From the IMG/VR virus record IMGVR_UViG_3300028044_000003, positions 47,531 to 111,530 of that record: a DNA stretch of 64,000 bases, one strand, 5' to 3'. The first letter of the stretch is position 1. Every line of letters starts with the position of its first letter. Made by a program: the position numbers and the translations under genes. The notes beneath the pieces are model-generated. The model saw only the letters and a list, made by a program, of their open reading frames with translations, did no database searches and had not been told where the DNA came from. Below are positions 8,971-48,496 of this stretch, one piece after another. Source of the stretch: a virus.

Positions 8971-9639
8971 ATGGCTTTAAGTACAAAAAATGTAAACACA
9001 GGTTCGTTATCTAAAATATTCGAACCAGGTAATTTGAAGGCTGAGATTTTATCTATAGCCCTGGCACCATTCCCTTTTAAAGAAGGTTCTTATCACATCA
9101 CATTATTTATCCAAGGTTCTGAGATCGAAGGTTTTCAAGGAATCCCTGTAGACAAAGCAAATCCTGAAGGTGAAAAATACAAAGGTCAAGTGGCTTATGT
9201 AAAATCAAACGAATACGCTTATGCTGATGGTACTACTAAAAGTGGTATTAGTGTTTCTAGAGATATGGATATCTTGAAATTCGTTAAAAATGTTTGTGTA
9301 GAAAGCGGTTCGGAAGCTATAAAATGGTTTGAAGAGCAAGATAACAAACACGATACTATCGAATCTTTAATGGATAATTTTAATACAGTAAAGCCTTTCA
9401 AAGGTGTTATGTTTAATCTATGTGTTGGTGGTAGAGAATATACTAACAAACAAGGTTATCCAGCTTTTGATTTAAACTTAGTAAGACCGGCTAAAGGTGA
9501 AAAGAATTTAGAAAACGTAGGAGCTACTAACTCTAGGTTAGTAATTTTTGACTCTTCTAAACATATTAAAAAGCAAGCCCAAAAAGAGTTTAGTCAATCT
9601 GACTCTGAACCGGCATCTGACGATACATTTTCACTTTAA
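8971..9639 (+). CDS. single-stranded DNA-binding protein-like (putative)
   Basis: Follows the Sak4-like gene; acidic/aromatic C-terminal tip ASDDTFSL. Confidence 0.55.
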   Translation: MALSTKNVNTGSLSKIFEPGNLKAEILSIALAPFPFKEGSYHITLFIQGSEIEGFQGIPVDKANPEGEKYKGQVAYVKSNEYAYADGTTKSGISVSRDMDILKFVKNVCVESGSEAIKWFEEQDNKHDTIESLMDNFNTVKPFKGVMFNLCVGGREYTNKQGYPAFDLNLVRPAKGEKNLENVGATNSRLVIFDSSKHIKKQAQKEFSQSDSEPASDDTFSL

Positions 9640-9655
9640 TCATGTTTAATTTGGA

Positions 9656-9689
9656 GAGGGGAGAACGAAAGTTTTCCCCTTATTTTATT
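9656..9689 (+). terminator. intrinsic terminator
   Basis: GAGGGGAGAAC-GAAA-GTTTTCCCCTT 11-bp stem with GNRA loop and T-rich tail. Confidence 0.8.
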
Positions 9690-9691
9690 AA

Positions 9692-10642
9692 ATGCTTAGG
9701 ACAACACAATTAGATATTCCGTCTCAATGGATTTTTAAGCATTTTTTAAATTTAGATGTTGATTTAGTTGGTCAAAGTATAACTATCAAATCTCCTTTTA
9801 ATCTAAATGATAAGAATCCTAGTTTTTATTTAAAATACAATGATAATTTCCAGCAATACTTTTTTATAGATTACAATCGTAAAGTAGAAGGTAATGCCGA
9901 GACTTTTATAAAATTACTATTTAACGTATCCATTAACGAAGCTAATTCTATTATTAGAGAAGCATATAATAAAAGCGATGATACTAAAGTATATAATTGC
10001 GAGACTCAAATAGAATCTCGTAAAACCAAAATCATTGATTACAAACTTGGTTATTGGACAAATAAAAATTATAATTTTTGGTTAAAGTTTGGTATAAATA
10101 AATTTATCCTGGATTATTATAACGTTAAACCTCTTAGTGAATTTATCATTCAAAGTATAAATGGTGTTTTTACTATAAAAAGAGAAATTTTATATGGTTA
10201 TTTTGATAAATATGGTATGTTGTATAAGATATATATCCCGGATTCTGATTTTAAATTTTATGCCGTACAAGATTTTATTAGCGGTACTTGTCAATTAACT
10301 TATAAAACAGACTATTTACTCATTATGTCATCATTAAAAGATATGATGTCTTTTAAAAGTCTGAATATAGGTAATATAGAGTATGTAGCTCCTAACTCTG
10401 AGACTAGTTTTATACATCTAGGTCATATAAATGCTTATAAAGTACACTATAAAAAAATTGGTGTTTTGTTTGATAATGACTCGGCCGGTATAAACGGTAG
10501 TAAATCTTATAAAAACTATTATAACATTGACTATTTGAATTTACCTTTGTCAAAAGATGTATCAGATTCTGTTAAGGATTACGGGATTAAAAAAGTAAAA
10601 GAAGTAATTATACCAATCTTAATAAAACATTTTAAATCATGA
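9692..10642 (+). CDS. dnaG: DnaG-type DNA primase (crAss-like)
   Basis: SPF..DKNPSF N-terminal domain (no Cys ligands), TOPRIM SSLKD and FDNDSAG, KDVSD. Confidence 0.85.
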   Translation: MLRTTQLDIPSQWIFKHFLNLDVDLVGQSITIKSPFNLNDKNPSFYLKYNDNFQQYFFIDYNRKVEGNAETFIKLLFNVSINEANSIIREAYNKSDDTKVYNCETQIESRKTKIIDYKLGYWTNKNYNFWLKFGINKFILDYYNVKPLSEFIIQSINGVFTIKREILYGYFDKYGMLYKIYIPDSDFKFYAVQDFISGTCQLTYKTDYLLIMSSLKDMMSFKSLNIGNIEYVAPNSETSFIHLGHINAYKVHYKKIGVLFDNDSAGINGSKSYKNYYNIDYLNLPLSKDVSDSVKDYGIKKVKEVIIPILIKHFKS

Positions 10643-11097
10643 ATATAAAAGTTGTCAAATTAGAACCAGAAAATAAGCTCCCGGTAAAGATGTTTCCTAA
10701 AGCTGGTGCTTGGGATGTATGTTGTACAGAAATTATCAGGGAGTCTGATAATTATTATCGTTGTAAGTTAGGTCTTAAGATGACTCCGCCTCCAGGGTAT
10801 AGAATTGTATTTGTACCTCGCAGTAGTATTACTAAAACACAATGGATATTACAAAATAGTCCCGCTACTGGTGATGAAGATTTTACTGGAGAGTACGAGT
10901 TAAGATTCAAATGTATTCCGTATACATCTACTGAATCTGCTTACAAAGGTACATCTTACGAAAAGTTTCCTTTTAAAGTAGGAGATCGTATTGCTCAGAT
11001 GTATTTAGAAAAAGTTGAAGAATTTGAATTTCAAGAAGTAAATAATTTAGATGAAACAGATAGAGGAAAGGGAGGTTTTGGATCCACGGGTAACTAA
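10639..11097 (+). CDS. dut: trimeric dUTPase
   Basis: Five motifs: AGAWD, PRSS, GDEDFTGE, GDRIAQ, RGKGGFGSTG. Confidence 0.95.
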   Translation: MNIKVVKLEPENKLPVKMFPKAGAWDVCCTEIIRESDNYYRCKLGLKMTPPPGYRIVFVPRSSITKTQWILQNSPATGDEDFTGEYELRFKCIPYTSTESAYKGTSYEKFPFKVGDRIAQMYLEKVEEFEFQEVNNLDETDRGKGGFGSTGN

Positions 11098-11260
11098 TCG
11101 TATTGAACATTCTTCTAAAACATTATCAAAACTTTCTAAATTAGGTATGAAGATGTGTTCGAATTGTAATAATTTATGTAGTGATCAAGATTTTCGTTGT
11201 AAAAAATGTAAACTTCGTTTAAAATATGATAGTGACTTTAAACTGTGTAGTAAAATATGA
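11051..11260 (+). CDS. small Zn-ribbon protein (start uncertain)
   Basis: CSNC...CKKC pair; overlaps both neighbours. Confidence 0.5.
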   Translation: MKQIEEREVLDPRVTNRIEHSSKTLSKLSKLGMKMCSNCNNLCSDQDFRCKKCKLRLKYDSDFKLCSKI

Positions 11261-11525
11261 AAACAATTTTGCGAACGTTTACCATAACGATAATTTGTTA
11301 GCTTCTGAAAACCCGGAACATGCTGTTTTAAAAGTACCTCCGTTGTTTAAAAGAATAAACAATTTATCTGAAGATAAATGTGAGGGATTAGTTATTTATT
11401 TTGAGAAGGAGGGAGAAATTGTTACACCGATTATTTTAAATAAGTGTTACATATCTGTCGAAACATATCTTTTTAAAAATACTTTTGTACATTATAAATC
11501 GCAAACGGACGATTATCCGTTATAA
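11226..11525 (+). CDS. hypothetical protein
   Basis: 99-aa ORF. Confidence 0.65.
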   Translation: MIVTLNCVVKYENNFANVYHNDNLLASENPEHAVLKVPPLFKRINNLSEDKCEGLVIYFEKEGEIVTPIILNKCYISVETYLFKNTFVHYKSQTDDYPL

Positions 11526-11528
11526 CTT

Positions 11529-12035
11529 ATGATTTCTATAGGAATTGATATAGGTAAAAAAGGAGGAATCTTTATTCAAAACGATAAAGGTGATAAAGAA
11601 TCTTATAAGATGCCAATGGTAAAAGATCAGTTAGATATTTCAGGTATTTACAAAATTCTTTCTGGCTACGAAGGTATGAGAGGTATTGTAGTTTTTGAAA
11701 AACTAGCTCCTATTTTTGGATCTTCTAAAACCACGGCTTTTAGTATGGGATTTCAAGCCGGTATTATTGAAGCTTTATGTGTAAGCTTGGCTATTCGTTA
11801 TCATATCGTACCACCTAAAGCTTGGCAAAAACAAATGTTTGAAGGGGTTGATGAAATAATCAAAACCGTTAAAGGTGTTAAAAAGAGAGATACTAAATCT
11901 ATGGCTTTAATTGCTGTAAAAAGACGTCATCCTGACGTTGTACTTAAATTTTCAAACAAAGTCACAAAAGATCACGATGGTCTTGTTGACGCTATACTTC
12001 TAAGCGATTATGGAAAACTCATCTACAAAGATTGA
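11529..12035 (+). CDS. ruvC: RuvC-like Holliday junction resolvase
   Basis: IGIDIG, VVFE, VPPKAWQK and DGLVDA (RNase H fold D-E-D-D). Confidence 0.88.
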   Translation: MISIGIDIGKKGGIFIQNDKGDKESYKMPMVKDQLDISGIYKILSGYEGMRGIVVFEKLAPIFGSSKTTAFSMGFQAGIIEALCVSLAIRYHIVPPKAWQKQMFEGVDEIIKTVKGVKKRDTKSMALIAVKRRHPDVVLKFSNKVTKDHDGLVDAILLSDYGKLIYKD

Positions 12036-12462
12036 GTTTATTTCTATCGAACAGTACTATACTTTATTAAACATGCTTAACTCTCCTGACAAAGAAAATG
12101 TTACTTTGGCTCTGGGTGTTATTGATAGATTCGATTATGCTAAAAACATGATCCCTATGACTATGTTATTTAAGTATAGTAAAGTACCAGTTAATGAATG
12201 GAAAGTTTTAACTAACGGATTTTATCAGTATGTAGTTGATAAACAATTAATTAGTAGAAATTTTTCTTATACGCTTACTAAAAAACTTTATGATTTAATA
12301 GGTATAAAAAATCTAGAACATGAAGAAATTTTAGTTAAAGCTGCATTATCGGGTATTTATTCACTTATTGATAGTTTTAAATTCGGTCAGTTAAAAAATA
12401 TTATTGTCGAATACGAAGACAAATCTATTTTATTAAATAAAGAATTTGACAACAATGGATAA
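12010..12462 (+). CDS. hypothetical protein with NM-x-NS-x-D-x-x-N-x-x-LA motif
   Basis: 150-aa ORF sharing a 34-aa motif with the 15236-16366 product. Confidence 0.8.
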   Translation: MENSSTKIEFISIEQYYTLLNMLNSPDKENVTLALGVIDRFDYAKNMIPMTMLFKYSKVPVNEWKVLTNGFYQYVVDKQLISRNFSYTLTKKLYDLIGIKNLEHEEILVKAALSGIYSLIDSFKFGQLKNIIVEYEDKSILLNKEFDNNG

Positions 12463-13654
12463 AAAAACAGAATCTTTAGCAAAAGTTTGTAAAGAGTTAA
12501 TGTTAAAAGAACCTTTCTATGGATTGTTTCTTATAATGTTAAATAAATCATGGTCTAAAAAAGTACCTACTGCTGCAGTAAGTATTAATGATATAAATTA
12601 CCGTTTAGAAATAAACGAAGAGTTTTGGGAAAAGTGTAATCCTTTACAAAAAATGGGATTGCTTAAACACGAGCTTTTACACATTGGTTTTTTCCATCTT
12701 ACTAATTTTAACCATCTCTCTGATCAACGTATTCTCAATCTTGCTATGGATTGTGAGATTAACCAATACATTGATAGAGATTGGTTACCAGGAAATCCTG
12801 TATTACCGGAGTGTTTTCCAGACTTAAATCTCGATCCGAAAGAAGGTACTATTTCTTACTATGAGAAAATGATAACCGCTGCTAAGAATAATTCTTGTCC
12901 GAATTTAAAAGCTGCGTTAGAAGGTCAAGGTCAAGGTACTATACAAATAACTATGGCTGGTAATGAACCTGGAGAAATGGATATTCCGGAACACGACTGG
13001 GAAAAAGTAGAATTAGACGAGGCTACCCAAAAACTTATTGAAAAACAAACAGGTCATATACTAAACGAGTTAGCTGATCAGGTTAAAAAGTCTAGAGGTA
13101 CTATTCCTGGCGAATTTCAAAGTATTTTGGATAAGATTAATTATACCGAACCGCCTAAGTTTGATTGGAAAGGGTTTCTAAGAAGATTTTCGGGAGCTTC
13201 AGTAAAAATTTATACAAAAAAGTCTCGTAGAAAACTTAGTAAACGATACGAAGAAAACCCTGGATTAAAAATTAAACAAAAGAAACACGTTCTTGTAGCT
13301 GTAGATACTTCAGGTTCTGTAAGTAATGGTGAGTTGATTGAATTTTTTCAAGAAATAAACCATATTCACAAAACAGGAACTGATATTACTGTAGTACAGG
13401 CCGATGCTGATATAAAAGATATTAGTCCTTTTGATCCTAAAAAAGAAATAAAATTATTCGGTAGAGGAGGTACAAGTTTTGACCCGGTAGTAGAATACTA
13501 TTCAGAAAACGTTCATAAGTATACGTGTCTGATTTATCTTACTGACGGTGAAGCACCAGCCCCAGAATACAGTAGAGGAAGAATGTTATGGGTTCATTCT
13601 TCTAATTCATCTATTAATGAATCATTACCCGGAATAAAAATACAATTAAATTAG
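12446..13654 (+). CDS. DUF2201-type metallopeptidase + VWA domain protein
   Basis: HELLH zincin motif, NLAMDCEINQ, MIDAS DTSGS, GRGGT, TDG. Confidence 0.9.
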   Translation: MTTMDKKTESLAKVCKELMLKEPFYGLFLIMLNKSWSKKVPTAAVSINDINYRLEINEEFWEKCNPLQKMGLLKHELLHIGFFHLTNFNHLSDQRILNLAMDCEINQYIDRDWLPGNPVLPECFPDLNLDPKEGTISYYEKMITAAKNNSCPNLKAALEGQGQGTIQITMAGNEPGEMDIPEHDWEKVELDEATQKLIEKQTGHILNELADQVKKSRGTIPGEFQSILDKINYTEPPKFDWKGFLRRFSGASVKIYTKKSRRKLSKRYEENPGLKIKQKKHVLVAVDTSGSVSNGELIEFFQEINHIHKTGTDITVVQADADIKDISPFDPKKEIKLFGRGGTSFDPVVEYYSENVHKYTCLIYLTDGEAPAPEYSRGRMLWVHSSNSSINESLPGIKIQLN

Positions 13655-13655
13655 T

Positions 13656-15203
13656 ATGTCTAAAAAACAAGTACATCTTAACAGTAATGAACTAAAAGGG
13701 TTTCTTACTCACATGATTACAAACAACAGATTTCTTGAAGTTAATAACAAGAAAAAAGTAGCCGTAGAAATTATGGGCGAATCTGGTTTAGGTAAAACTA
13801 GCGTAGCATTACAGCTTGCTAATGAATTAAATTTGAATTTTGTAAAGTTGAACTTATCTCAGATTGAAGAGTTAGGTGACCTTGTTGGTTTCCCAATAAG
13901 ACAATTTGAGTTATGTAAGTACGAAGAAACTGTAGATAGAGCTTTACCGGTAACTGAAACGGTAACTAAAACTGTACAAATACCTGTTATTAAAACAGTT
14001 AAAAAGTTTGTTCCAAAAATAGTTACTAAAACCGGAGAAAGATTAGAATTAGTTACAGAAACAGTGATGGAATCTAAAACAGTTAAAAAACAGGTTTTAG
14101 AGAATGGTCGTATGACAATGAAAGAAGTAACTACACAAGTTCCGGTGACTAAAGAAGTAGAGAAAATGGTACCTTACGAGTATACTGAAGAAGAACACGT
14201 TGAAATAGAAGTTGAAGAAACTGTAATGATAGATGATGTTGTTACTGAATCGGTAACTCTTGGAACACAGTTTATACAACCAACTTATTCAGGATGTATT
14301 TGGGTTGATGAACAAGCTACGGAAGAGTATCTTAAAAGAGGTTATAATTTTACCGGCAACAAACGTATGTCTTACTGTCCACCAGAATGGATTGCAAACA
14401 AAGAAGGTGGTGGTATATTAATCATTGATGATTATAACAGAGCGGATCTTAGATTCTTACAAGCAATAATGGAATTGGTAGACCGTGGTGAGTATATTTC
14501 TTGGAAATTACCTTCTGACTGGCATATTATCCTTACAGCTAACCCGGATAACGGTAACTATTTAGTTAACGCTATGGATAACGCTCAAACAACTCGTTTT
14601 GTAAGCGTTAACTTAAAGTGGGATTCTGATTGTTGGGCTCAGTGGGCTGAGAAAGATGGTGTTGATACAAGATGTATAAACTTTGTGTTGTTACATCCGG
14701 ATATGATCCAAGGAGATGTTAACCCAAGAAGTGTTACAAACTTCTTTAACTGTATTAGTTCTTTGGAAGATTTCTCTAAGGAATTACCTTTGGTTCAAAT
14801 GATTGGTGAAGGTTCGGCCGGTTCAGAATTTACTACAATGTTTACGATGTTTATCAATAATAACCTTGATAAGATTGTAAATCCTAAAGAAATCTTATTT
14901 GACGATAATGAAGGTAATGTGATAAAGAAAATGAGAGATTCTTTTGGTAGAGGTGTAAACTATCGCGCAGATATCGCTTCAGTAGTAACTGCTCGTCTTA
15001 TTAACTACACTCTTTATTACGCTGAGTCTAATTCTATTACGCAACCTCAGATAAATCGTTTGATAAGAGTTTGTACAGAGAGAGAAGAGTTCTTAAGCGC
15101 AGATCTTCAGTATGTAATTGTTAAAAAGTTACTAGCTGGAAACAAGCAAAAATTTCAGAAACTTTTAGTTAACCCGGAAGTTATTACAATGGCTTCTAAA
15201 TAA
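13656..15203 (+). CDS. MoxR-family AAA+ ATPase with long beta-hairpin insertion
   Basis: Walker A GESGLGKT, DLVGFP, Walker B IIDDYNRA, sensor TANP, D.A...RF, NPRS; paired with a VWA gene. Confidence 0.9.
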   Translation: MSKKQVHLNSNELKGFLTHMITNNRFLEVNNKKKVAVEIMGESGLGKTSVALQLANELNLNFVKLNLSQIEELGDLVGFPIRQFELCKYEETVDRALPVTETVTKTVQIPVIKTVKKFVPKIVTKTGERLELVTETVMESKTVKKQVLENGRMTMKEVTTQVPVTKEVEKMVPYEYTEEEHVEIEVEETVMIDDVVTESVTLGTQFIQPTYSGCIWVDEQATEEYLKRGYNFTGNKRMSYCPPEWIANKEGGGILIIDDYNRADLRFLQAIMELVDRGEYISWKLPSDWHIILTANPDNGNYLVNAMDNAQTTRFVSVNLKWDSDCWAQWAEKDGVDTRCINFVLLHPDMIQGDVNPRSVTNFFNCISSLEDFSKELPLVQMIGEGSAGSEFTTMFTMFINNNLDKIVNPKEILFDDNEGNVIKKMRDSFGRGVNYRADIASVVTARLINYTLYYAESNSITQPQINRLIRVCTEREEFLSADLQYVIVKKLLAGNKQKFQKLLVNPEVITMASK

Positions 15204-15209
15204 AATTAA

Positions 15210-15235
15210 GGGAGGGAAACCTCCCGCTTTTATTT
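15210..15235 (+). terminator. intrinsic terminator / stem-loop
   Basis: GGGAGG-GAAA-CCTCCC followed by GCTTTTATTT. Confidence 0.7.
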
Positions 15236-16366
15236 ATGATTAAAAAAGAAAAGATTTTTTATATCCTTAATAAAAATGATAATACATTTTCTACTAGTAC
15301 ATTGAGTTATATTTCTGACCTGAGTTGCGATATGGTAGATAACTATTCTATTCAAAAAAATGATAGAATATTTTTCTTACCTGGCTGCACAGTACCTAGA
15401 TTTAAAATAAGAAATGTACTTAAAGATAATGATGCGTCAATATCTAGAACTTTAGATGGTTCTAATGTAGTAATTATGTCTAACGATACTTTTAAAAATC
15501 TATTTAAAACTATACTCTTACGTAGAGTATTTAAAGATAATTTTATACAATTTGTTTTAGCTAATCCTCAAAAGATTCAAAACGGTAATGAAATTATTGA
15601 TAGACTTAATCAATTTGAATTAGAAAATGGTGATACACGGTATGTTTATTTACATCGTAGTAATTATTATTCGTTTGTTAGACAAGGTATTTATAATAAA
15701 CCTCTTGAAGACGAGTGTCCTAGTTTTAATCAAATAAAAAACTTACACGAAAACGATGATGATTTTGATGAAAATCAACATCCGGATAATCCATGTGCTA
15801 GTGTAGATTTATTGTTTACTCAAGATGATTATGACATTGAAGTTTTAGCTGATAAGCTTTATTCTAATTCTCATAACTATTCTATAGTAGATCAAGATGA
15901 TCTTTTAAAAATTATTAATTGTAACAGTACTTTTATTGATGAAGCTAAGTATGAAGAGTTAAGAAACATGTGTAATAGTTCTGACAACTCAAACATGATT
16001 TTAGCTATGGAAATTATGAGTAATTGTGATTACGATGATTCTTATGTTTATTTAATATTACTGTTAGCTGAATATCATAAATCATTTTATACGGTTAAAG
16101 AACGAAATCACGTAAACTTTAAAAGTATGTTAGAGTATCTAGGTTTTAAACCTACGGATTTATCTCAACTGGGATTTAGTAGTTTTATAGAAGGTATGAA
16201 AACTAAAGGTAAGTTTACAAAAACTAATTGTGACTTATTATTAAATCGTTTAATTAAGCATTGTACCTCTTATAGCGGTAGGGACTATGTAGTCATTTCG
16301 AGCGATTATACAGATGTATTAATTTTACCAAAAGAAGAATGTTTAGACCCAGAATCTAATGACTAA
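15236..16366 (+). CDS. hypothetical protein with possible N-terminal BRCT-like domain and shared C-terminal motif
   Basis: IFFLPGCTVPRFKIR...ISRTLDGSNVVI resembles BRCT; motif shared with ORF 12010. Confidence 0.6.
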   Translation: MIKKEKIFYILNKNDNTFSTSTLSYISDLSCDMVDNYSIQKNDRIFFLPGCTVPRFKIRNVLKDNDASISRTLDGSNVVIMSNDTFKNLFKTILLRRVFKDNFIQFVLANPQKIQNGNEIIDRLNQFELENGDTRYVYLHRSNYYSFVRQGIYNKPLEDECPSFNQIKNLHENDDDFDENQHPDNPCASVDLLFTQDDYDIEVLADKLYSNSHNYSIVDQDDLLKIINCNSTFIDEAKYEELRNMCNSSDNSNMILAMEIMSNCDYDDSYVYLILLLAEYHKSFYTVKERNHVNFKSMLEYLGFKPTDLSQLGFSSFIEGMKTKGKFTKTNCDLLLNRLIKHCTSYSGRDYVVISSDYTDVLILPKEECLDPESND

Positions 16367-17396
16367 TCAAATCGATGTTAACGTTCTTGAAAATGAGTTT
16401 AAGAACACCCCTTTATTTCTTAGTTATTCTTCTCTTAGCAAACTTCACTATTCTCCTAAACTTTATTACAAACATTATGTACTAAAAGAAAAAGAAGAAG
16501 ATGAAGAGCGTTATACGGAAGGAAAGCTCATACACTCATTACTCCTGGATAACGGGAGTTTTGATGAAAAGTTTTTACTATCTCCGGGCACTTTACCTGG
16601 TGATAATAATAAACTGATAATTGATAATATTTATAAAATACACTTGGAAGTTAATGATGGTAGAACTTTGTTGTCTGATTACTTTAATGAGATTCTTGTT
16701 TTACTATTATCAATGAATTTACACCAATCTCTTGTAGACGATAAAAAACCAGTTAACGGTGTATCACGTACAGGTGATCAAAAACGACTTGAAAAAATAC
16801 TTACTACACAGAATGAAGAGTACTTTGAACACTTAAAAGTTAAAAAAGATAGACACATAATTGATGCCGAAACTTTAGATAGATGCGCTAAAATTGTAGA
16901 TATACTTAAGACCGAATCAAGAACTAAGGATTTATTAAAGTTGGATAATTATGATGATAATATTCAAGTGTTTAATGAGAAAGAAATAAAAATATCTCAA
17001 GAAGGATTACCATTTGGTTTTAGAGGGTTCTTAGATAATTATACTGTTGATTATGGTAAAAAGATGGTTATTGTTAACGATCTCAAAACAACTAGTAAAT
17101 CAATAGTTTATTTTGTAGAAACGATTGAAATCTATAACTACTGGATTCAGGCCGCGATATATAAAAAGCTTATTCAACACGAGTTAAAAGATATTCTTAC
17201 TAAAGAATGGACAATTTCTTTTAATTTTATCGTTGTAGATAAATTCGAACAAGTATATTCTTTTCCTGTTTCGGACGAAACTATGACTCTCTGGGAGGAG
17301 AGATTAGACGATATTATTAAAAAAGCTTCGTGGCACATAGAAAATATGTATTTTAAATTACCATACGACTATGCCCATGACCTTGTAATTCTTTAA
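16359..17396 (+). CDS. PD-(D/E)XK exonuclease (RecE/ExoVIII-like)
   Basis: LSYSSL, G.LIH..LL, NE, RGFLD, VNDLKTT, Y.IQAAIY. Confidence 0.88.
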   Translation: MTNQIDVNVLENEFKNTPLFLSYSSLSKLHYSPKLYYKHYVLKEKEEDEERYTEGKLIHSLLLDNGSFDEKFLLSPGTLPGDNNKLIIDNIYKIHLEVNDGRTLLSDYFNEILVLLLSMNLHQSLVDDKKPVNGVSRTGDQKRLEKILTTQNEEYFEHLKVKKDRHIIDAETLDRCAKIVDILKTESRTKDLLKLDNYDDNIQVFNEKEIKISQEGLPFGFRGFLDNYTVDYGKKMVIVNDLKTTSKSIVYFVETIEIYNYWIQAAIYKKLIQHELKDILTKEWTISFNFIVVDKFEQVYSFPVSDETMTLWEERLDDIIKKASWHIENMYFKLPYDYAHDLVIL

Positions 17397-17397
17397 C

Positions 17398-17985
17398 ATG
17401 AAGAGTAACTTTTCTTTGTATAGAAATTATTCCCAGAAAAGTAGGATATTTTTATATCCTGCTCTGGGGATAAAAAGAAGTAGTAGTGTAAAACCTATTC
17501 AAACTTATATTACTATTGAAGGAAGATACGGTTTGGAAGATTACTGTTTAACAGCAACTTTTCAAATCAGAACGGATGACGAATATAAACTATTTATAAA
17601 AAATGTTTTGAAAGGTAATAAATATTTTAAGGAAGCTTTTGAAATAACTAACGAAGAAAAGATTATAATTGTATTTAATTTAATAGATTTTAAAAAAGAT
17701 TGGGATAGTTTTATATTAGGTAAGTATTCTAAACTTTCGGTTTATCAGAAAAATAATATCTTAAGTTTTTATAAAACTAACCCCAATAGTTTAGCTTACA
17801 TTGAAAGTTATTTGTACCCTTACAAGTATAATCGATTGTACGCAGATGCTTTGAGTTCTTCCGAACAGGAGGCCGATAAGATGTACATATTGTTGAAACA
17901 AGTTGGAGAATTATGCTCTAAACCTGATTTAGAAAAAGAAAATTTAGTGGTAGATGTATCAAAATTAGTTTTAGTAGAAAAATAA
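17398..17985 (+). CDS. hypothetical protein
   Basis: 195-aa ORF. Confidence 0.8.
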   Translation: MKSNFSLYRNYSQKSRIFLYPALGIKRSSSVKPIQTYITIEGRYGLEDYCLTATFQIRTDDEYKLFIKNVLKGNKYFKEAFEITNEEKIIIVFNLIDFKKDWDSFILGKYSKLSVYQKNNILSFYKTNPNSLAYIESYLYPYKYNRLYADALSSSEQEADKMYILLKQVGELCSKPDLEKENLVVDVSKLVLVEK

Positions 17986-18016
17986 TTCTTAACTTGCGCT
18001 TATTAAAACCAACACT

Positions 18017-18439
18017 ATGAGTCAAAACATGTTATTAATCTCATCTGTCTGGGAAAGAACTCCAGAGATGAAACTTCCAACTTTTAAATTAATCCCTTCA
18101 TCGCTTGATTGTCCTTATACGGAAGCGATTTTTGATCCTTTTTCCGGATACTTGGTTGTTTTGGATAAAAACAAAAAAACCTCTTTCCAAATGGTCCCTC
18201 GTTTAGATGAAAACGGTGATCGTATGGTTAACAAAAAAGACAATTCGGTAAAACAAGAAAGACGTCTTGTAGATATCTTTAATGATCATATTATGTATAA
18301 CCCTGAAGAAATCGAAAATTTCATCGAAAGATTTGCGGTTAACACTCATAATTTTGATTATAAGAAATACTTCAAAATGTCTGAAGATCTTAACAAACAA
18401 GCTTTACAAGAAGAAAAAGTAGCTGAAACAGTAGAATAA
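18017..18439 (+). CDS. hypothetical protein upstream of polB
   Basis: 140-aa ORF, TAATG-coupled to the polymerase. Confidence 0.8.
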   Translation: MSQNMLLISSVWERTPEMKLPTFKLIPSSLDCPYTEAIFDPFSGYLVVLDKNKKTSFQMVPRLDENGDRMVNKKDNSVKQERRLVDIFNDHIMYNPEEIENFIERFAVNTHNFDYKKYFKMSEDLNKQALQEEKVAETVE

Positions 18440-20370
18440 TGGATTTCGTTTATGACTACGAAACCCTTTCAAATTGTTTTGTTGGGGTTTTTATTGATGT
18501 CAGATCGGATGAAAAAAAAGTTTTTGTGGTCCACGAACTAAGAAATGATTTTCAAAAGTTCGTGGATTTTTTATCAGAAGCTGTTAAATCCAAGACTTGG
18601 CAAATTTCTTTTAATGGTTTAAATTTTGATGCTCAAATCACTGAGAAGGTCTTGAAAGAAAAAGATATTCTTTCAAATAAATCTTCTGATGAAATAGCTC
18701 GTTATCTCTACGAATACGCACAGTCAATTATTGACCGTTCTAGAAACAAAATGTTTCAAGAGTTTTACGAAAGTAAAATGAAAATTCGTCAGCTAGATGT
18801 ATTTAAACTTAACCACTGGGATAACACTAATAAATTTACATCTTTAAAAGAATTACAATTCGCTACTGATTGGCATAACTTACAAAGTATGCCTATACAC
18901 CATACTCAAGAGGTAACTACTCTTGATGAAATTAATACTATAATTGAATATTGTGTTAACGATGTTATTACTACAAAAAAAGTATTGTATTTATCAAAAC
19001 CTTTGTTGGAAGTAAGGAAACAAGTTAAAAGTAAATATGGATTACCTTGTGATAACTATTCAAATACTAAACTAGGTAGTGAGTTATTACTTAAACTTTA
19101 TTGCCAGGCTACTGGTAAAGATTCTTACGAAGTTAGACAGTATCGTACTAATCGTCCTGAAATTCCTATTAAAGATATTTTGTTTGACTATATCAGTTTT
19201 AAAACAGATGACTTAAAGCAATTTCATGAGTCGCTTAAGACGAAAATTATTAGAAATACTAAGAATGATTTTACTTACAAGAAAACTTTTAAAGATTATG
19301 TTTTTCACTATGGTTCTGGGGGTATACACCAGTGTATTGAACCAGGAATATATCGCGCGGATGAAGGTTATATCATAAAAGATCTTGATGTAGCTTCTCT
19401 ATATCCGAGTATCGCGTGTATGAACGAAATGTATCCGGCCCATCTAGGAAAAGAATTTTTTACTGTATATAAAGAAGGTATTGTTGACGTGAGACTTGCT
19501 GAGAAACGCAAAGGTAAAGACGGAGATAGAGCTATTATCGAGGGCTTTAAGGAAGCAGCCAACGCATCTTACGGTAACAGTAACAGTATTTATTCCTGGT
19601 TATATGATCCTCAGTATACAATGCAAACTACTATTAACGGTCAGTTGTTAATAACGATGTTAGTAGAAGATCTTATTGTAAATATACCGGACTCACAGCT
19701 TCTACAAACTAATACAGATGGTGCCACTCTTCGTATTCCAAAAGATAAAGAAGATGTTTATTATTCTGTTTGTAAAAAGTGGGAAGAAGTAACCAAACTT
19801 TCTCTAGAGTTTGCTGATTATAAAGAGATGTTTATATGGGATGTAAATAACTACATTGCTGTATATACAGATCCTAGCAAGTCTCCAAAATGTAAAGGTA
19901 GGTTTGAGTGGGAAGACCAGGAAAAATATAAGTATACACATCTTCATAAGAACAAGAGTCATTTAATTATTCCGAAAACGATTTTTAACTTTCTAATACA
20001 CAAAACTCCTATTGAAGATTATATTCGTAACTATCGAAATATCTATCATTTTTGTGCTTTTGTAAAGGCGCCACACGGTTGGGAGTTTAAAAAACTATCA
20101 ACTATTAACGGTGATTACGTAGAAAAAAACATTCAGAAAGATGTTAGATATTATGTATCCGTTAAAGGGTCTAAAATACTAAAGTGTAATATAAACGATG
20201 GTAGAAAAATCCAGGTAGAAGCTGGTAAGTGGATGCAGACGGAGTTTAATTTATACAAAGAAAAACCGTGGGAAGAATACAATATTGATTATAAGTATTA
20301 TATCGAAGCTGTTTATAATGAATTAGAAACATTAATTCCAAAAAGTAATAACCAAATAAGTTTATTTTAA
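18439..20370 (+). CDS. polB: family B DNA polymerase with 3'-5' exonuclease
   Basis: Exo I YDYET, II FNGLNFD, III YCVND; Pol A DLDVASLYP, B KEAANASYG, C NTDG. Confidence 0.96.
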   Translation: MDFVYDYETLSNCFVGVFIDVRSDEKKVFVVHELRNDFQKFVDFLSEAVKSKTWQISFNGLNFDAQITEKVLKEKDILSNKSSDEIARYLYEYAQSIIDRSRNKMFQEFYESKMKIRQLDVFKLNHWDNTNKFTSLKELQFATDWHNLQSMPIHHTQEVTTLDEINTIIEYCVNDVITTKKVLYLSKPLLEVRKQVKSKYGLPCDNYSNTKLGSELLLKLYCQATGKDSYEVRQYRTNRPEIPIKDILFDYISFKTDDLKQFHESLKTKIIRNTKNDFTYKKTFKDYVFHYGSGGIHQCIEPGIYRADEGYIIKDLDVASLYPSIACMNEMYPAHLGKEFFTVYKEGIVDVRLAEKRKGKDGDRAIIEGFKEAANASYGNSNSIYSWLYDPQYTMQTTINGQLLITMLVEDLIVNIPDSQLLQTNTDGATLRIPKDKEDVYYSVCKKWEEVTKLSLEFADYKEMFIWDVNNYIAVYTDPSKSPKCKGRFEWEDQEKYKYTHLHKNKSHLIIPKTIFNFLIHKTPIEDYIRNYRNIYHFCAFVKAPHGWEFKKLSTINGDYVEKNIQKDVRYYVSVKGSKILKCNINDGRKIQVEAGKWMQTEFNLYKEKPWEEYNIDYKYYIEAVYNELETLIPKSNNQISLF

Positions 20371-46800: not shown

Positions 46801-48496
46801 TTGTGTATTGAAATATCTTTTTAGGGATATAACTTGTTACTAAAGTTTGTGGACCCTGGATCAATCCGCCCATTAAGAACCCGCTAGCAAAAACTTCTAA
46901 CCCTTGTTTAGATATTTGTGAGTTTACAGCTTTGGACGCACTTTCTATAAACCCGGCGTAAGCTGGATCACTATAAACAGACGTATAATAATCTTCAATA
47001 CCTGCAGCTAACCCTTCTTGGTATAGTTCTTGAACACCTTCTCCTACATTAGCTTTTACATATCTTAAAGACCACGGTGTAACACCTTTTGTAATAACCG
47101 ATGTAGCTTTATCTCTAAAAGTCTTTACCCCTTGTTGGTAAAAATCTTTACCGAGTTTCCAATCGGCCGCTTGTTTAAATACATTTTGTGAAGTTTCACC
47201 GGCAATAGTTCCTGCGGTTTTAGCAAACGTAGGAAATAGTTTACTAAAGTTTGGTAATACTATTTTATTAGTGTAAAGTATTATAGGTAAATTATATAAA
47301 GTAGTATTGGCTTTAGCTTCGTTTATGTTGTTATAAATTTTATCAGCAGCTTCCCCCTCCGGCATAATACCGTTCTTTTCGTAGTAATCTGATATAAACT
47401 TATCACCTAGTTCTTTTTTAACCATTCCCCCTTCAAGAGCACCTTCACTATAAGCTACATATATGTTTCTCATATCTACATAAAACGAACCAACTCCTCG
47501 GCCCATTAACGCGTAGTTTTTAGTCAGATCTGTTGTTTTCTTTAAATCACTAAGACCTTTTATAAACTGAGTAGATTCTTCAAGAGGGTTTAAAAATTTA
47601 CCTACAGCTACTGTTCCATTTTTAGCCATATTATAAAAATCCCTGGCGTTATCTACTTTATTCAGATTCCTAACGAAGTTTAAAGATTGAGATGTTAGTT
47701 TTAAACCCTGAGCTATTTTACCAAGTCCGTATATATTTCTGGTTACTCCAGTTGTAGCTGCAGCAACGGCTGCACCTTGACCTCCAGGAATCAAACTTAA
47801 TCCAAAAGTTGTACCAGCAATCGCTAGGTTTTCAGCAGTTAACGCTGTTACTAAACCTACAGTGTAAGCTGAGTTTAGTACCAAGTTATTAGCAAAACCA
47901 GCTATACCACCTCTTGTAGAAGCTCCTTGATTATTAGCATCTATAAACTCTCTCGCCATTTGGTCTGAACCACCATCATAAGCAGCTCCGAATAAAATAG
48001 ATGATTTAAAAGCTGTACCGAATAAGTTTTTCCAAGCACCAAACGTTCTTCCGAAATCATCCCAGGCTGAAGAGTTTTCGTTGTAAAAAGTTTCATTATC
48101 TCTAAAAGGAGAAAATCCTAAATCTTTATAACGAGGATGGTTATAGAAACGATAGAAGTTTTCATTCATCTCGTTAGAACCCCACGCAAAAGGTTTAGCT
48201 TTTTCGTAAGGGTTAGCTGACCATTTATCGGCTTGACTTACGTAATCTGAAAATATTTCACCAAACGAGTTAGTATTATCAGAAGTTATTCCTGGATTAG
48301 GACCAGACATAACATCGCCCTGAAGATTTAACTTAACAGTTCCTGACCCAGGCTCACCTTCAATATTAGGTAATATAGGAACAGGCGCATTATCTGTAGG
48401 AATAATAGGTGCCGTTTGTTGTGGTATAATACCTTCGTTTTTTAGAACATCTAAAAAATCAGCAGAACCGTATATCGTATTTAATTTTTCAGACAT
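43838..48496 (-). CDS. large virion ejection protein with membrane-inserting segments and variable C-terminal cassettes
   Basis: 1552 aa, upstream of vRNAP; Gly/Ala hydrophobic stretches at ~47745-47915 and ~46850-46895; GEGVQELYQ motif; KKANIE/KADIERRRQEEL linkers. Confidence 0.75.
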   Translation of the reverse strand: MSEKLNTIYGSADFLDVLKNEGIIPQQTAPIIPTDNAPVPILPNIEGEPGSGTVKLNLQGDVMSGPNPGITSDNTNSFGEIFSDYVSQADKWSANPYEKAKPFAWGSNEMNENFYRFYNHPRYKDLGFSPFRDNETFYNENSSAWDDFGRTFGAWKNLFGTAFKSSILFGAAYDGGSDQMAREFIDANNQGASTRGGIAGFANNLVLNSAYTVGLVTALTAENLAIAGTTFGLSLIPGGQGAAVAAATTGVTRNIYGLGKIAQGLKLTSQSLNFVRNLNKVDNARDFYNMAKNGTVAVGKFLNPLEESTQFIKGLSDLKKTTDLTKNYALMGRGVGSFYVDMRNIYVAYSEGALEGGMVKKELGDKFISDYYEKNGIMPEGEAADKIYNNINEAKANTTLYNLPIILYTNKIVLPNFSKLFPTFAKTAGTIAGETSQNVFKQAADWKLGKDFYQQGVKTFRDKATSVITKGVTPWSLRYVKANVGEGVQELYQEGLAAGIEDYYTSVYSDPAYAGFIESASKAVNSQISKQGLEVFASGFLMGGLIQGPQTLVTSYIPKKIFQYTKPEQYKQTIERAEQKEVENMNSANVLLKNILGFTENNLENAVRVKAAAETMDRAILEGRQGAFQNAQDDLLFEHTFNLLRNGRTELLTDAVSSFKTMKDEELSEAFEVDMADVSALRKRLDSSLNQISNLDQQYKDINKKWIKPDILNVRDSGEGPAIEDSIKLSRYHDFAVKMLLFNRNAFQRSLERKESILRNLNSDNKLKDLSDFDFNTLADEMLGTSEMVVLGNQIQSLKLAEKPDTKEVSKLESKLDLLNKFWNGIAERKQISKDDIDGLEENERLLFNLYKDYLNQNAKRKGQPVFNDQIKKSFIDLMDTHVLTEDSLDFANQINILDSPEWFYDVVNSRRFLTLRTAEKYKNQIDKGYDEFKRIEKVNNLLLTKLDEKNFFLLADQINNYVRNNVIPTEIYDSNTRTLVQPGTPRYDEAQAIIAEILEEEVKAEQAVKEAAEKEAKSIIEKLKNINSSVLLKIQRNNYSIIEFDDLDENQKTALKKLRIGASDKELDELSKTLQLKRIDEQINQEFVQLFKELDTIYKSIYNKPLGEYIKEVYGKDPKGTTPTNVLRYYFALYSPAGQELIDKYNENKPDDQKISKPSLEVVEEQAPVTKTEEEVVTPASVVTPAPTAPVSDKKANIEKQKEQYKKMTKGTPIHKDSPKGIKIGDKYDDILAIISVVERLAINFDKTIADDNGLGYEVISKIKEYGEMENGVQTKAPKIEVITFNNKADADAFFVAEKAKLDKHIADAELAASGTATKADIERRRQEELTELGQKQLTKGFNSLSEATKPEQVANAIVNIEQNKNQGALLSKEQEQTLSEARAKLKEQVLKQIDEIVTLLREAQSKLDEKLFEQANAIVSDINYNTNATEEQRTYVNEIYDQAVKILEVAPMIEKNKNVTLTGGITYQIIKVNPVNVMIQKVKIVNGIAEITGTPEKVNKLELAQNIVKPEEITITKQDETNAQDPGIVSVQPNKVIANRTVFLDNIQPC

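Follow-up and report, generated by a model that had tools for sequence, protein, structure and literature searches.

A 64,000-nucleotide stretch of viral DNA, positions 47,531 to 111,530 of IMG/VR record IMGVR_UViG_3300028044_000003 (hereafter the window), encodes an AAA+ ATPase that carries a 128-residue insert. We consider it reasonably probable that this insert is a beta ribbon of ~46 residues per arm that extends the helix-2 (H2) insert, and that it would give the ATPase ring six separate hinged arms in which the tip binds and the stem spaces. Such a ribbon takes a known element to an extreme that has apparently not been described before. Computation shows the register of the hairpin, the symmetric change of arm length among relatives, the pattern of prolines along the strand edges, and the contrast between a conserved tip and a hypervariable base; the arrangement as arms and the roles of tip and stem are inferred. 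The gene and the parts of the insert are listed below, with the evidence for each in brackets; pLDDT is the predicted local distance difference test score of AlphaFold2.

13656..15203, plus strand: AAA+ ATPase gene, 515 residues, AAA_5 / MoxR-like, phrog_1297 (open reading frame (ORF) and translation, Pfam, PHROG, Foldseek)
13896..13922, plus strand: base (canonical H2-insert) hairpin, outgoing strand, residues 81-89, containing C87 (AlphaFold2; retained in insert-less relatives)
13914..14297, plus strand: whole insert, C87 to C214, 128 residues (sequence; Cys-to-Cys segment of 6-130 residues in relatives)
13923..13964, plus strand: outgoing linker, residues 90-103, low-confidence and hypervariable (pLDDT, column entropy)
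13965..14102, plus strand: predicted outgoing ribbon strand, residues 104-149 (AlphaFold2; P110 and P120 at non-hydrogen-bonded positions)
14103..14108, plus strand: two-residue turn N150-G151 in a conserved tip motif, KKQVLE-NG-K/R...K (sequence, homologues)
14109..14246, plus strand: predicted return ribbon strand, residues 152-197 (AlphaFold2; P163 and P173 at non-hydrogen-bonded positions)
14247..14285, plus strand: return linker, residues 198-210, low confidence (pLDDT below 50 for 199-207)
14286..14309, plus strand: base hairpin, return strand, residues 211-218, with C214, W216 and D218 (AlphaFold2)

The insert was first noticed in an original prediction made from the sequence alone, which placed a symmetric hairpin at 13914-14297. 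These positions are exactly codons C87-C214, and the insert does lie between DLVGFP (residues 75-80) and PPEW (residues 242-245), centred on N150-G151. Moreover, all 19 residue pairs that had been listed for an i+j=301 register are literally present in the translation. We scored this register by counting hydrophobic-hydrophobic, T-T and opposite-charge pairs, and compared it with composition-preserving shuffles (n=2000). It scores 23 of 63, against 12.9 +/- 3.0 in the shuffles; a score of 23 was reached by 3/2000 shuffles at the fixed register and by 21/2000 when the best of all registers was taken. Within the single sequence the register is thus moderately above chance, and the strong evidence comes from the homologues. 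The insert is biased in composition, being rich in V, T, K and E. It had also been claimed that the outgoing arm is mostly basic and the return arm acidic. The latter holds, with a net charge of -10 on the return arm, but the former was overstated: the outgoing arm carries a net +3, and the asymmetry is concentrated in the proximal half, where residues 104-126 sum to +6 and residues 175-197 to -10, the distal half being near neutral. Across the family the mean charges of the proximal half are +3.0 (outgoing) and -5.5 (return).

AlphaFold2 was run on the 515-residue ATPase with an 84-sequence alignment (mean pLDDT 83.6). The model contains, in order, helix alpha2 at 67-76, strands at 81-89 and 104-149, a break at 150-151, strands at 152-197 and 211-218, and the Walker B strand at 253-257. 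Thus it agrees with the proposal of a two-stranded ribbon at the H2-insert position, giving one long beta-hairpin that is neither helical nor disordered. Two equal strands of 46 residues about a two-residue turn amount to the i+j=301 register. The ribbon block has a pLDDT of 73-84, whilst the stretches 93-106 and 199-207 are of low confidence (pLDDT below 50). A beta strand rises ~3.3 Å per residue, so that the confident ribbon, at 46 residues per arm, would be ~15 nm long. The 17-21 nm suggested originally is therefore too long, because it counted the linkers as regular sheet, for which the model gives no support; for the same reason C87-C214 and T100-T201 could not be upheld as regular sheet pairs. 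A 461-residue relative (P0071) with an insert of 74 residues from Cys to Cys was modelled likewise and gave strands at 102-124 and 127-149 about a D-G turn, again with floppy base linkers. At ~7.6 nm this is the same plan at half size, indicating that the predicted ribbon scales with the length of the insert.

Homologues were collected by a word-seeded search, which found 4,773, and insert lengths were surveyed in the best 120 of these. Here 39 to 163 residues lie between DLVGFP and PPEW, and the Cys-to-Cys inserts form an almost unbroken series of lengths from 6 to 130 residues. To measure the two arms separately we placed the turn by the conserved motif K-K-Q-V-L/M-x-x-G-K/R. In 88 distinct inserts with arms of 15-65 residues, the lengths of the two arms are correlated with r = 0.96 and a slope of 0.86, and differ by a mean of 2.5 residues (mean absolute difference), whereas ~48 would be expected for a randomly placed turn. 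Clear asymmetry is confined to two inserts (60/43 and 65/49); in three others the arms differ by 6 residues. The expectation that insertions and deletions fall symmetrically about the turn is therefore borne out, and arms of so many different lengths point to changes that arose independently and more than once.

The placement of prolines follows the same geometry. When positions are numbered outward from the turn, even numbers are hydrogen-bonded pairs and odd numbers non-hydrogen-bonded pairs. A regular, bulge-free ribbon predicts prolines at odd positions, because a missing NH there costs no cross-strand bond. Prolines are distributed 146:3 (odd:even) within 25 residues of the turn and 246:45 within 45 residues, and the ratio is 56:5 in 16 relatives with a three-residue loop. 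In the protein of the window itself, 6/6 prolines between C87 and C214 stand at odd positions. Two return-arm positions, 11 and 19, are occupied by proline in 40/66 relatives. Moreover, the two arms covary in the same register. Mutual information between the residue classes of the two arms, average-product corrected, peaks on the register diagonal at 0.080, falls to 0.048 and 0.029 at +/-2, and is near zero elsewhere; of the 25 strongest covarying pairs, 8 fall exactly on the diagonal. Pairs of opposite charge likewise have their maximum at shift 0 (0.153, compared with 0.045-0.129 at other shifts).

Conservation is graded along the hairpin. Column entropy is 0.94-1.34 bits over the first seven positions on each side of the turn, close to the 0.76 bits of the AAA core, and increases to 1.8-2.5 bits in the stem and 3.2-3.4 bits at the base (positions 37-44 from the turn). 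The tip is thus about as conserved as the ATPase core, and at the hypervariable base the chain is predicted to be floppy. In relatives the base segments contain much Ala, Pro and Ser and can be as long as ~25 residues on each side. Outside the ribbon, all of the 84 aligned homologues keep W216 and D218. C87 and C214 occur as a pair in 111 homologues and are missing as a pair from 10, with no case of one alone, and C241 is invariant irrespective of whether they are present. We note that C87 (13914-13916) and C214 (14295-14297) could clamp the hairpin base, by redox chemistry or by binding a metal.

Comparison of sequences and of models supports the insert as a lineage-specific extension of the H2-insert beta-hairpin, which would have grown from the tip of the base hairpin between alpha2 and Walker B. 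The H2 insert is the defining feature of the MoxR / dynein-midasin / chelatase clade (PMC7159879; PMC7973254). In insert-less relatives just 4 residues separate the two cysteines, and the genomic neighbourhood is conserved. In a relative with a short hairpin (P0149) the AAA_5 match is continuous across the insert site, and divergent family members have short to medium xDG or xNG hairpins there. A search of 50%-identity cluster representatives gave 3,043 matches. Among the best 150 of these, most complete proteins are 380-430 residues long and match in two pieces around the insert, with shorter entries matching one part; a single stretch spanning the insert was seen in one cluster (P0084), and shorter hairpins of the same type in P0141, P0144, P0147 and three fragments. 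A different solution is seen in marine and environmental IMG/VR relatives (loci L001-L080, the ATPase at ~5001-6260 of each). These have the same gene order and a different insert of 34-43 residues at the H2-insert tip, in which Tyr and Gly stand in place of the cysteines and an alanine-rich centre (AAQRAAA-like) is probably helical. Since a different insert occurs at the same point, the H2-insert tip is a hot spot for variation in this family.

We also considered other origins for the insert. At the DNA level a 48-nucleotide direct repeat of 77% identity links 13923-13967, where EETV...VTETVT is encoded at the outgoing base, with 14214-14258, which encodes EETV...VTESVT in the return arm. The hairpin may have grown with the help of a duplication, of which this repeat would be a trace. 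A 12-nucleotide unit is present in 2.4 copies at 13948-13976. An origin from DNA palindromes or tandem repeats was rejected: nothing beyond this unit and small repeats was found, and these may reflect growth by slippage but leave the symmetry unexplained. A diversity-generating retroelement with a template repeat was likewise set aside, as BLASTN of the insert against the whole window returned short, chance-level matches and no second copy. Nor does a mini-intein fit, given that C214 is preceded by Ser-Gly and not His-Asn, that both cysteines are kept in proteins lacking the insert, and that lengths run continuously from 6 to 130 with no bimodality. A search of the ESM Atlas with residues 95-206 gave no usable match. 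A word-based search with residues 99-202 against proteins of 903-2575 residues found no match at E <= 0.01 and thus no sign of the ribbon being used as a module in other large proteins, which is weak evidence.

Taken together, these data suggest how the element may be built and used. The tip of the ancestral hairpin would have grown into an intramolecular two-stranded antiparallel ribbon of ~15 nm, closed by N150-G151, and two linkers of ~10-13 residues each, both poorly ordered, would connect it to the base hairpin (81-89 / 211-218). In the expected hexamer, the six ribbons would not form a hydrogen-bonded barrel but would stand around the pore as separate, hinged arms, on the N-terminal (H2-insert) face. 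Binding would fall to the conserved tip (K144 K145 Q V L E149 - N G - R152 ... K156 E157), and the stem would be a spacer, its length tuned by each lineage. Nucleotide-driven movements of the H2 inserts would then shift whatever the tips hold, and a VWA-metallopeptidase encoded by the adjacent gene would act with the ring on the target of the tips, as a co-factor like those of other MoxR-VWA pairs. A conserved tip, a variable stalk and floppy linkers read best as a reach-and-bind arm.

The principal alternative for the assembled ring is that the six hairpins join edge to edge into a closed 12-stranded beta-barrel, a 'chimney' coaxial with the AAA+ pore that would lengthen it by ~15 nm, either permanently or by nucleotide state. 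Pore-forming toxin stems, built from one hairpin per subunit, offer a parallel. The dimensions agree, in that the H2 inserts of the MoxR-class ATPase NorQ ring a pore of ~15 Å and we estimate the radius of a 12-stranded barrel to be near 11-12 Å. The charges of the proximal halves (+6 and -10) and their family means would provide complementary edges between neighbouring hairpins, and covariation at +/-2 could be inter-hairpin as well as diagonal within a hairpin. However, edge prolines act against lateral strand pairing, and here they occupy outward edges where a neighbouring strand needs an NH donor, two of them in 40/66 relatives. Moreover, the linkers to the ring, with pLDDT below 50, hypervariable, rich in Ala, Pro and Ser and up to ~25 residues long, are unlike a rigid continuation of the pore. 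Prolines on the outward edges and a disordered, hypervariable connection to the ring thus favour arms over a tube, which we regard as unlikely. Slightly less so, though still doubtful, is that the arms are association elements, such that the ribbons of two rings, or of a ring and a phage or host protein, pair strand to strand, for example in a head-to-head dodecamer. RuvBL chains rank high among the Foldseek matches of the model, and RuvBL1/2 rings contact each other through insertions located between Walker A and Walker B; free ribbon edges together with a conserved tip could add strands to a partner. The same edge prolines disfavour extended strand addition, and no partner covarying in length was seen, the VWA-peptidase having 382-388 residues beside short inserts and 402 here. 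We give least credence to the insert being a largely disordered, low-complexity V/T/K/E spacer without a function of its own, tolerated at an exposed H2 tip, with the hairpin over-predicted by AlphaFold2. The biased composition, the 12-nucleotide tandem units and small direct repeats by which slippage could lengthen the insert, a stem and base far more variable than the core, and relatives that have only 4-10 residues between the cysteines in a conserved neighbourhood would all be consistent with this. Yet a disordered spacer provides no reason for arms of equal length (r = 0.96), for the parity of the prolines, for covariation along the hairpin diagonal or for a tip conserved like the core.

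Several points nevertheless weigh against separate arms with binding tips, the reading we prefer. All of its support is computational, and both AlphaFold2 models, which use alignments of the relatives, cannot count as evidence independent of the covariation. The statistics on symmetry, prolines and covariation take no account of shared ancestry among the homologues, and covariation cannot separate antiparallel pairing within a chain from that between chains. Proximal strands that are basic outgoing and acidic on return would also suit side-by-side packing of hairpins, which favours the tube. It is unusual for so long a two-stranded ribbon to stand alone without a hydrophobic core, and a partner might be needed to stabilise it. 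Both the hexamer and ATPase activity are assumed, and Walker B ends in Asp-Asp and not Asp-Glu. Lastly, a tip that binds and a stem that spaces are functions read solely from the conservation gradient.

The nucleotide-binding motifs of the ATPase lie on either side of the insert.

13776..13799, plus strand: Walker A, GESGLGKT, residues 41-48 (translation; homologue alignment)
14412..14432, plus strand: Walker B strand, ILIIDDY, residues 253-259 (translation; AlphaFold2 strand 253-257)

In 84 homologues, residues G44, G46, K47 and T48 of Walker A are invariant. Walker B has the form hhhhDD, Asp-Asp in place of Asp-Glu, and D258 and D259 (14427-14432) are likewise invariant. With Asp for Glu, this ATPase family may hydrolyse ATP slowly or by another catalytic arrangement. 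Against Pfam, the whole ATPase passes AAA_5, the dynein-related subfamily (24.1 bits, cut-off 22), with a match that is interrupted by the insert: AAA covers residues 39-71, and AAA_5 covers residues 218-315, equivalent to profile positions 34-139. AAA_3, which represents MoxR proper, is below its cut-off (17.4 bits against 27), and no NCBIfam model comes near its own cut-off with this protein. The protein falls in PHROG 1297, annotated plainly as 'ATPase' (E = 4e-32). A P-loop core with Walker A and B and a hairpin between alpha2 and Walker B are both present. AlphaFold2 also places short strand elements at 279-280 and 283-284, between a helix at 265-277 and a strand at 289-295, which would be consistent with a short pre-sensor-1 hairpin. 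By its P-loop core and the hairpin that follows alpha2, the ATPase is a member of the H2-insert AAA+ clade (MoxR / dynein-midasin / chelatase; Pfam AAA_5). The name MoxR given to it in the original prediction survives in this broad clade sense, in which AAA_5 passes, but not in the sense of MoxR proper; given the AAA_3 score and the NCBIfam result, 'MoxR-like' is valid only for the clade.

The gene directly upstream of the ATPase encodes its candidate partner.

12446..13654, plus strand: partner gene, 402 residues, HExxH metallopeptidase-like domain and VWA-like domain with a metal-ion-dependent adhesion site (MIDAS) (Pfam; translation)

Pfam identifies DUF2201_N (E = 8e-14) and the VWA-like domain of DUF2201 (E = 1.6e-15) in this protein, and a DxSxS motif of MIDAS type (DTSGS) can be read in its translation. 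A VWA/MIDAS gene beside the ATPase gene is as found for MoxR-type ATPases, at the level of the genes only. The pairing is close to universal, with the VWA-metallopeptidase gene adjoining the ATPase gene in 79/80 related viral loci from IMG/VR. We found no elongation of the partner to match the insert in comparing the VWA-peptidases beside short-insert ATPases (382-388 residues) with that of the window (402 residues). The family to which the partner belongs, phrog_1314, carries the PHROG label 'HNH endonuclease'. This label looks wrong, because Pfam finds a putative HExxH metallopeptidase and a VWA-like domain. In the order conserved between the window (8971-20370) and loci L001-L080, which lie on viral contigs of ~110-130 kb, a 222-residue ORF and a primase precede the VWA-peptidase and the AAA+ ATPase, and a 376-residue ORF, a PD-(D/E)XK nuclease, two small ORFs and a DNA polymerase follow. 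The ATPase/VWA-peptidase pair is thus a fixed part of a DNA-replication module. Neighbouring genes encode a DnaB-like helicase, a primase, a DNA polymerase, a PD-(D/E)XK nuclease and a Sak4-like annealing protein, and several giant ORFs of 1,500-4,300 residues lie on the opposite strand of the window. From these genes we take the window to be the replication module and virion-protein region of a large uncultured tailed phage. In a structural search of BFVD, the second-best match was a protein of a 'CrAss-like virus'.

The H2 insert is the partner-touching element of MoxR-class, MCM, dynein and enhancer-binding AAA+ machines. Here one hairpin is found in graded lengths, from 4 to ~126 residues between the anchoring cysteines, with its tip conserved, its edges proline-capped and its strands charge-paired. 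This length series would provide an experimental handle on what the H2 insert of viral MoxR-VWA systems reaches for, and such gene pairs are widespread in phages. Moreover, the ribbon may serve as a natural model, of interest to protein designers, for how very long two-stranded beta ribbons that have no core stay soluble and keep their register. A tube, were it true, would be a new AAA+ architecture, a soluble, ATP-driven 'chimney' that threads or delivers polypeptide or nucleic acid; we know of no AAA+ machine with a beta-tube chimney. In a milder form, if true, the series of 6-130 residues would act as a molecular ruler setting the distance of the tip from the ring.

Lastly, we compared the protein with known systems. 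A literature search, which was not exhaustive, found no account of such a ribbon or insert in an AAA+ protein. By sequence, the only chain matched in a PDB-wide profile search was midasin, with whole-chain E values of 7.7e-08 to 2.4e-07 and single stretches at E 0.1 or weaker; as the sole match, it leaves no detectable sequence similarity to NorQ or CbbQ. Midasin/Rea1 is thus the closest solved sequence, and the GxxGxGKT ... DLxG(x)P region aligns to several of its AAA modules. Midasin and dynein also bear functional elaborations of the H2 insert (PMC7973254). Unlike the phage protein, however, they have six AAA modules concatenated in one giant chain. Their elaborations take the form of short hairpins, with an alpha-helical insert in Rea1 AAA2, and to our knowledge none is a long two-stranded ribbon. 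By structure, VIA-align placed dynein AAA modules in the top rows (Z 13.6-14.2), with CbbQ and NorQ at Z 12.5-13. Values of Z 12-14 are shared alike by dynein, RFC, ClpX, ClpA, CbbQ and NorQ and reflect the generic AAA+ fold, so that they do not discriminate between clades.

RuvBL and HslU chains were also among the structural matches from Foldseek and VIA-align. The HslU I-domain and RuvBL1/2 domain II are modules of 130-170 residues in the large AAA+ subdomain that, like the proposed arms, project from one face of the hexamer. The two engage substrates or partners and, with the Rea1 AAA2 H2 insert, are functional analogues, being modules that lie between Walker A and Walker B and extend from the ring face. 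In contrast to the bare hairpin of the phage, HslU and RuvBL belong to other AAA+ clades and their inserts are folded, as an OB fold on a beta stalk in RuvBL and a helical domain in HslU; we know of no comparable length series for either.

Among viruses, the pairing of a MoxR-clade AAA+ gene with a neighbouring VWA gene recurs in the CobS/MoxR-like and VWA pairs of phages. In Acidianus two-tailed virus a MoxR-clade ATPase of tail development is encoded beside a VWA protein, a case cited in PMC7159879. Distant phage relatives, such as the proteins named 'MoxR-like ATPase' in PBS1/AR9 and in cyanophage S-TIM5, match the core at 23-26% identity over residues ~228-414, and none of these matches covers the insert.

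The best Foldseek match of the ATPase model is the hexamer of NorQ, a MoxR-class ATPase (PDB 9qh4, 9qh8). Its H2 inserts, termed 'long beta-hairpins', ring a 15 Å pore on the N-terminal face and bind a finger of the VWA partner NorD, which reaches through the pore (PMC13036017). NorQ and CbbQ (5c3c) share with the phage protein a beta-hairpin at the same site, from alpha2 to Walker B, and a VWA/MIDAS neighbour gene. They differ from it in that the phage ribbon is predicted to have 46 residues per arm on floppy linkers, Walker B reads Asp-Asp and AAA_3 is below its cut-off. Furthermore, unlike NorD and CbbO, the phage partner carries an HExxH peptidase-like domain (DUF2201_N). In both NorQ and CbbQ the H2 inserts make contact with a VWA partner or substrate.

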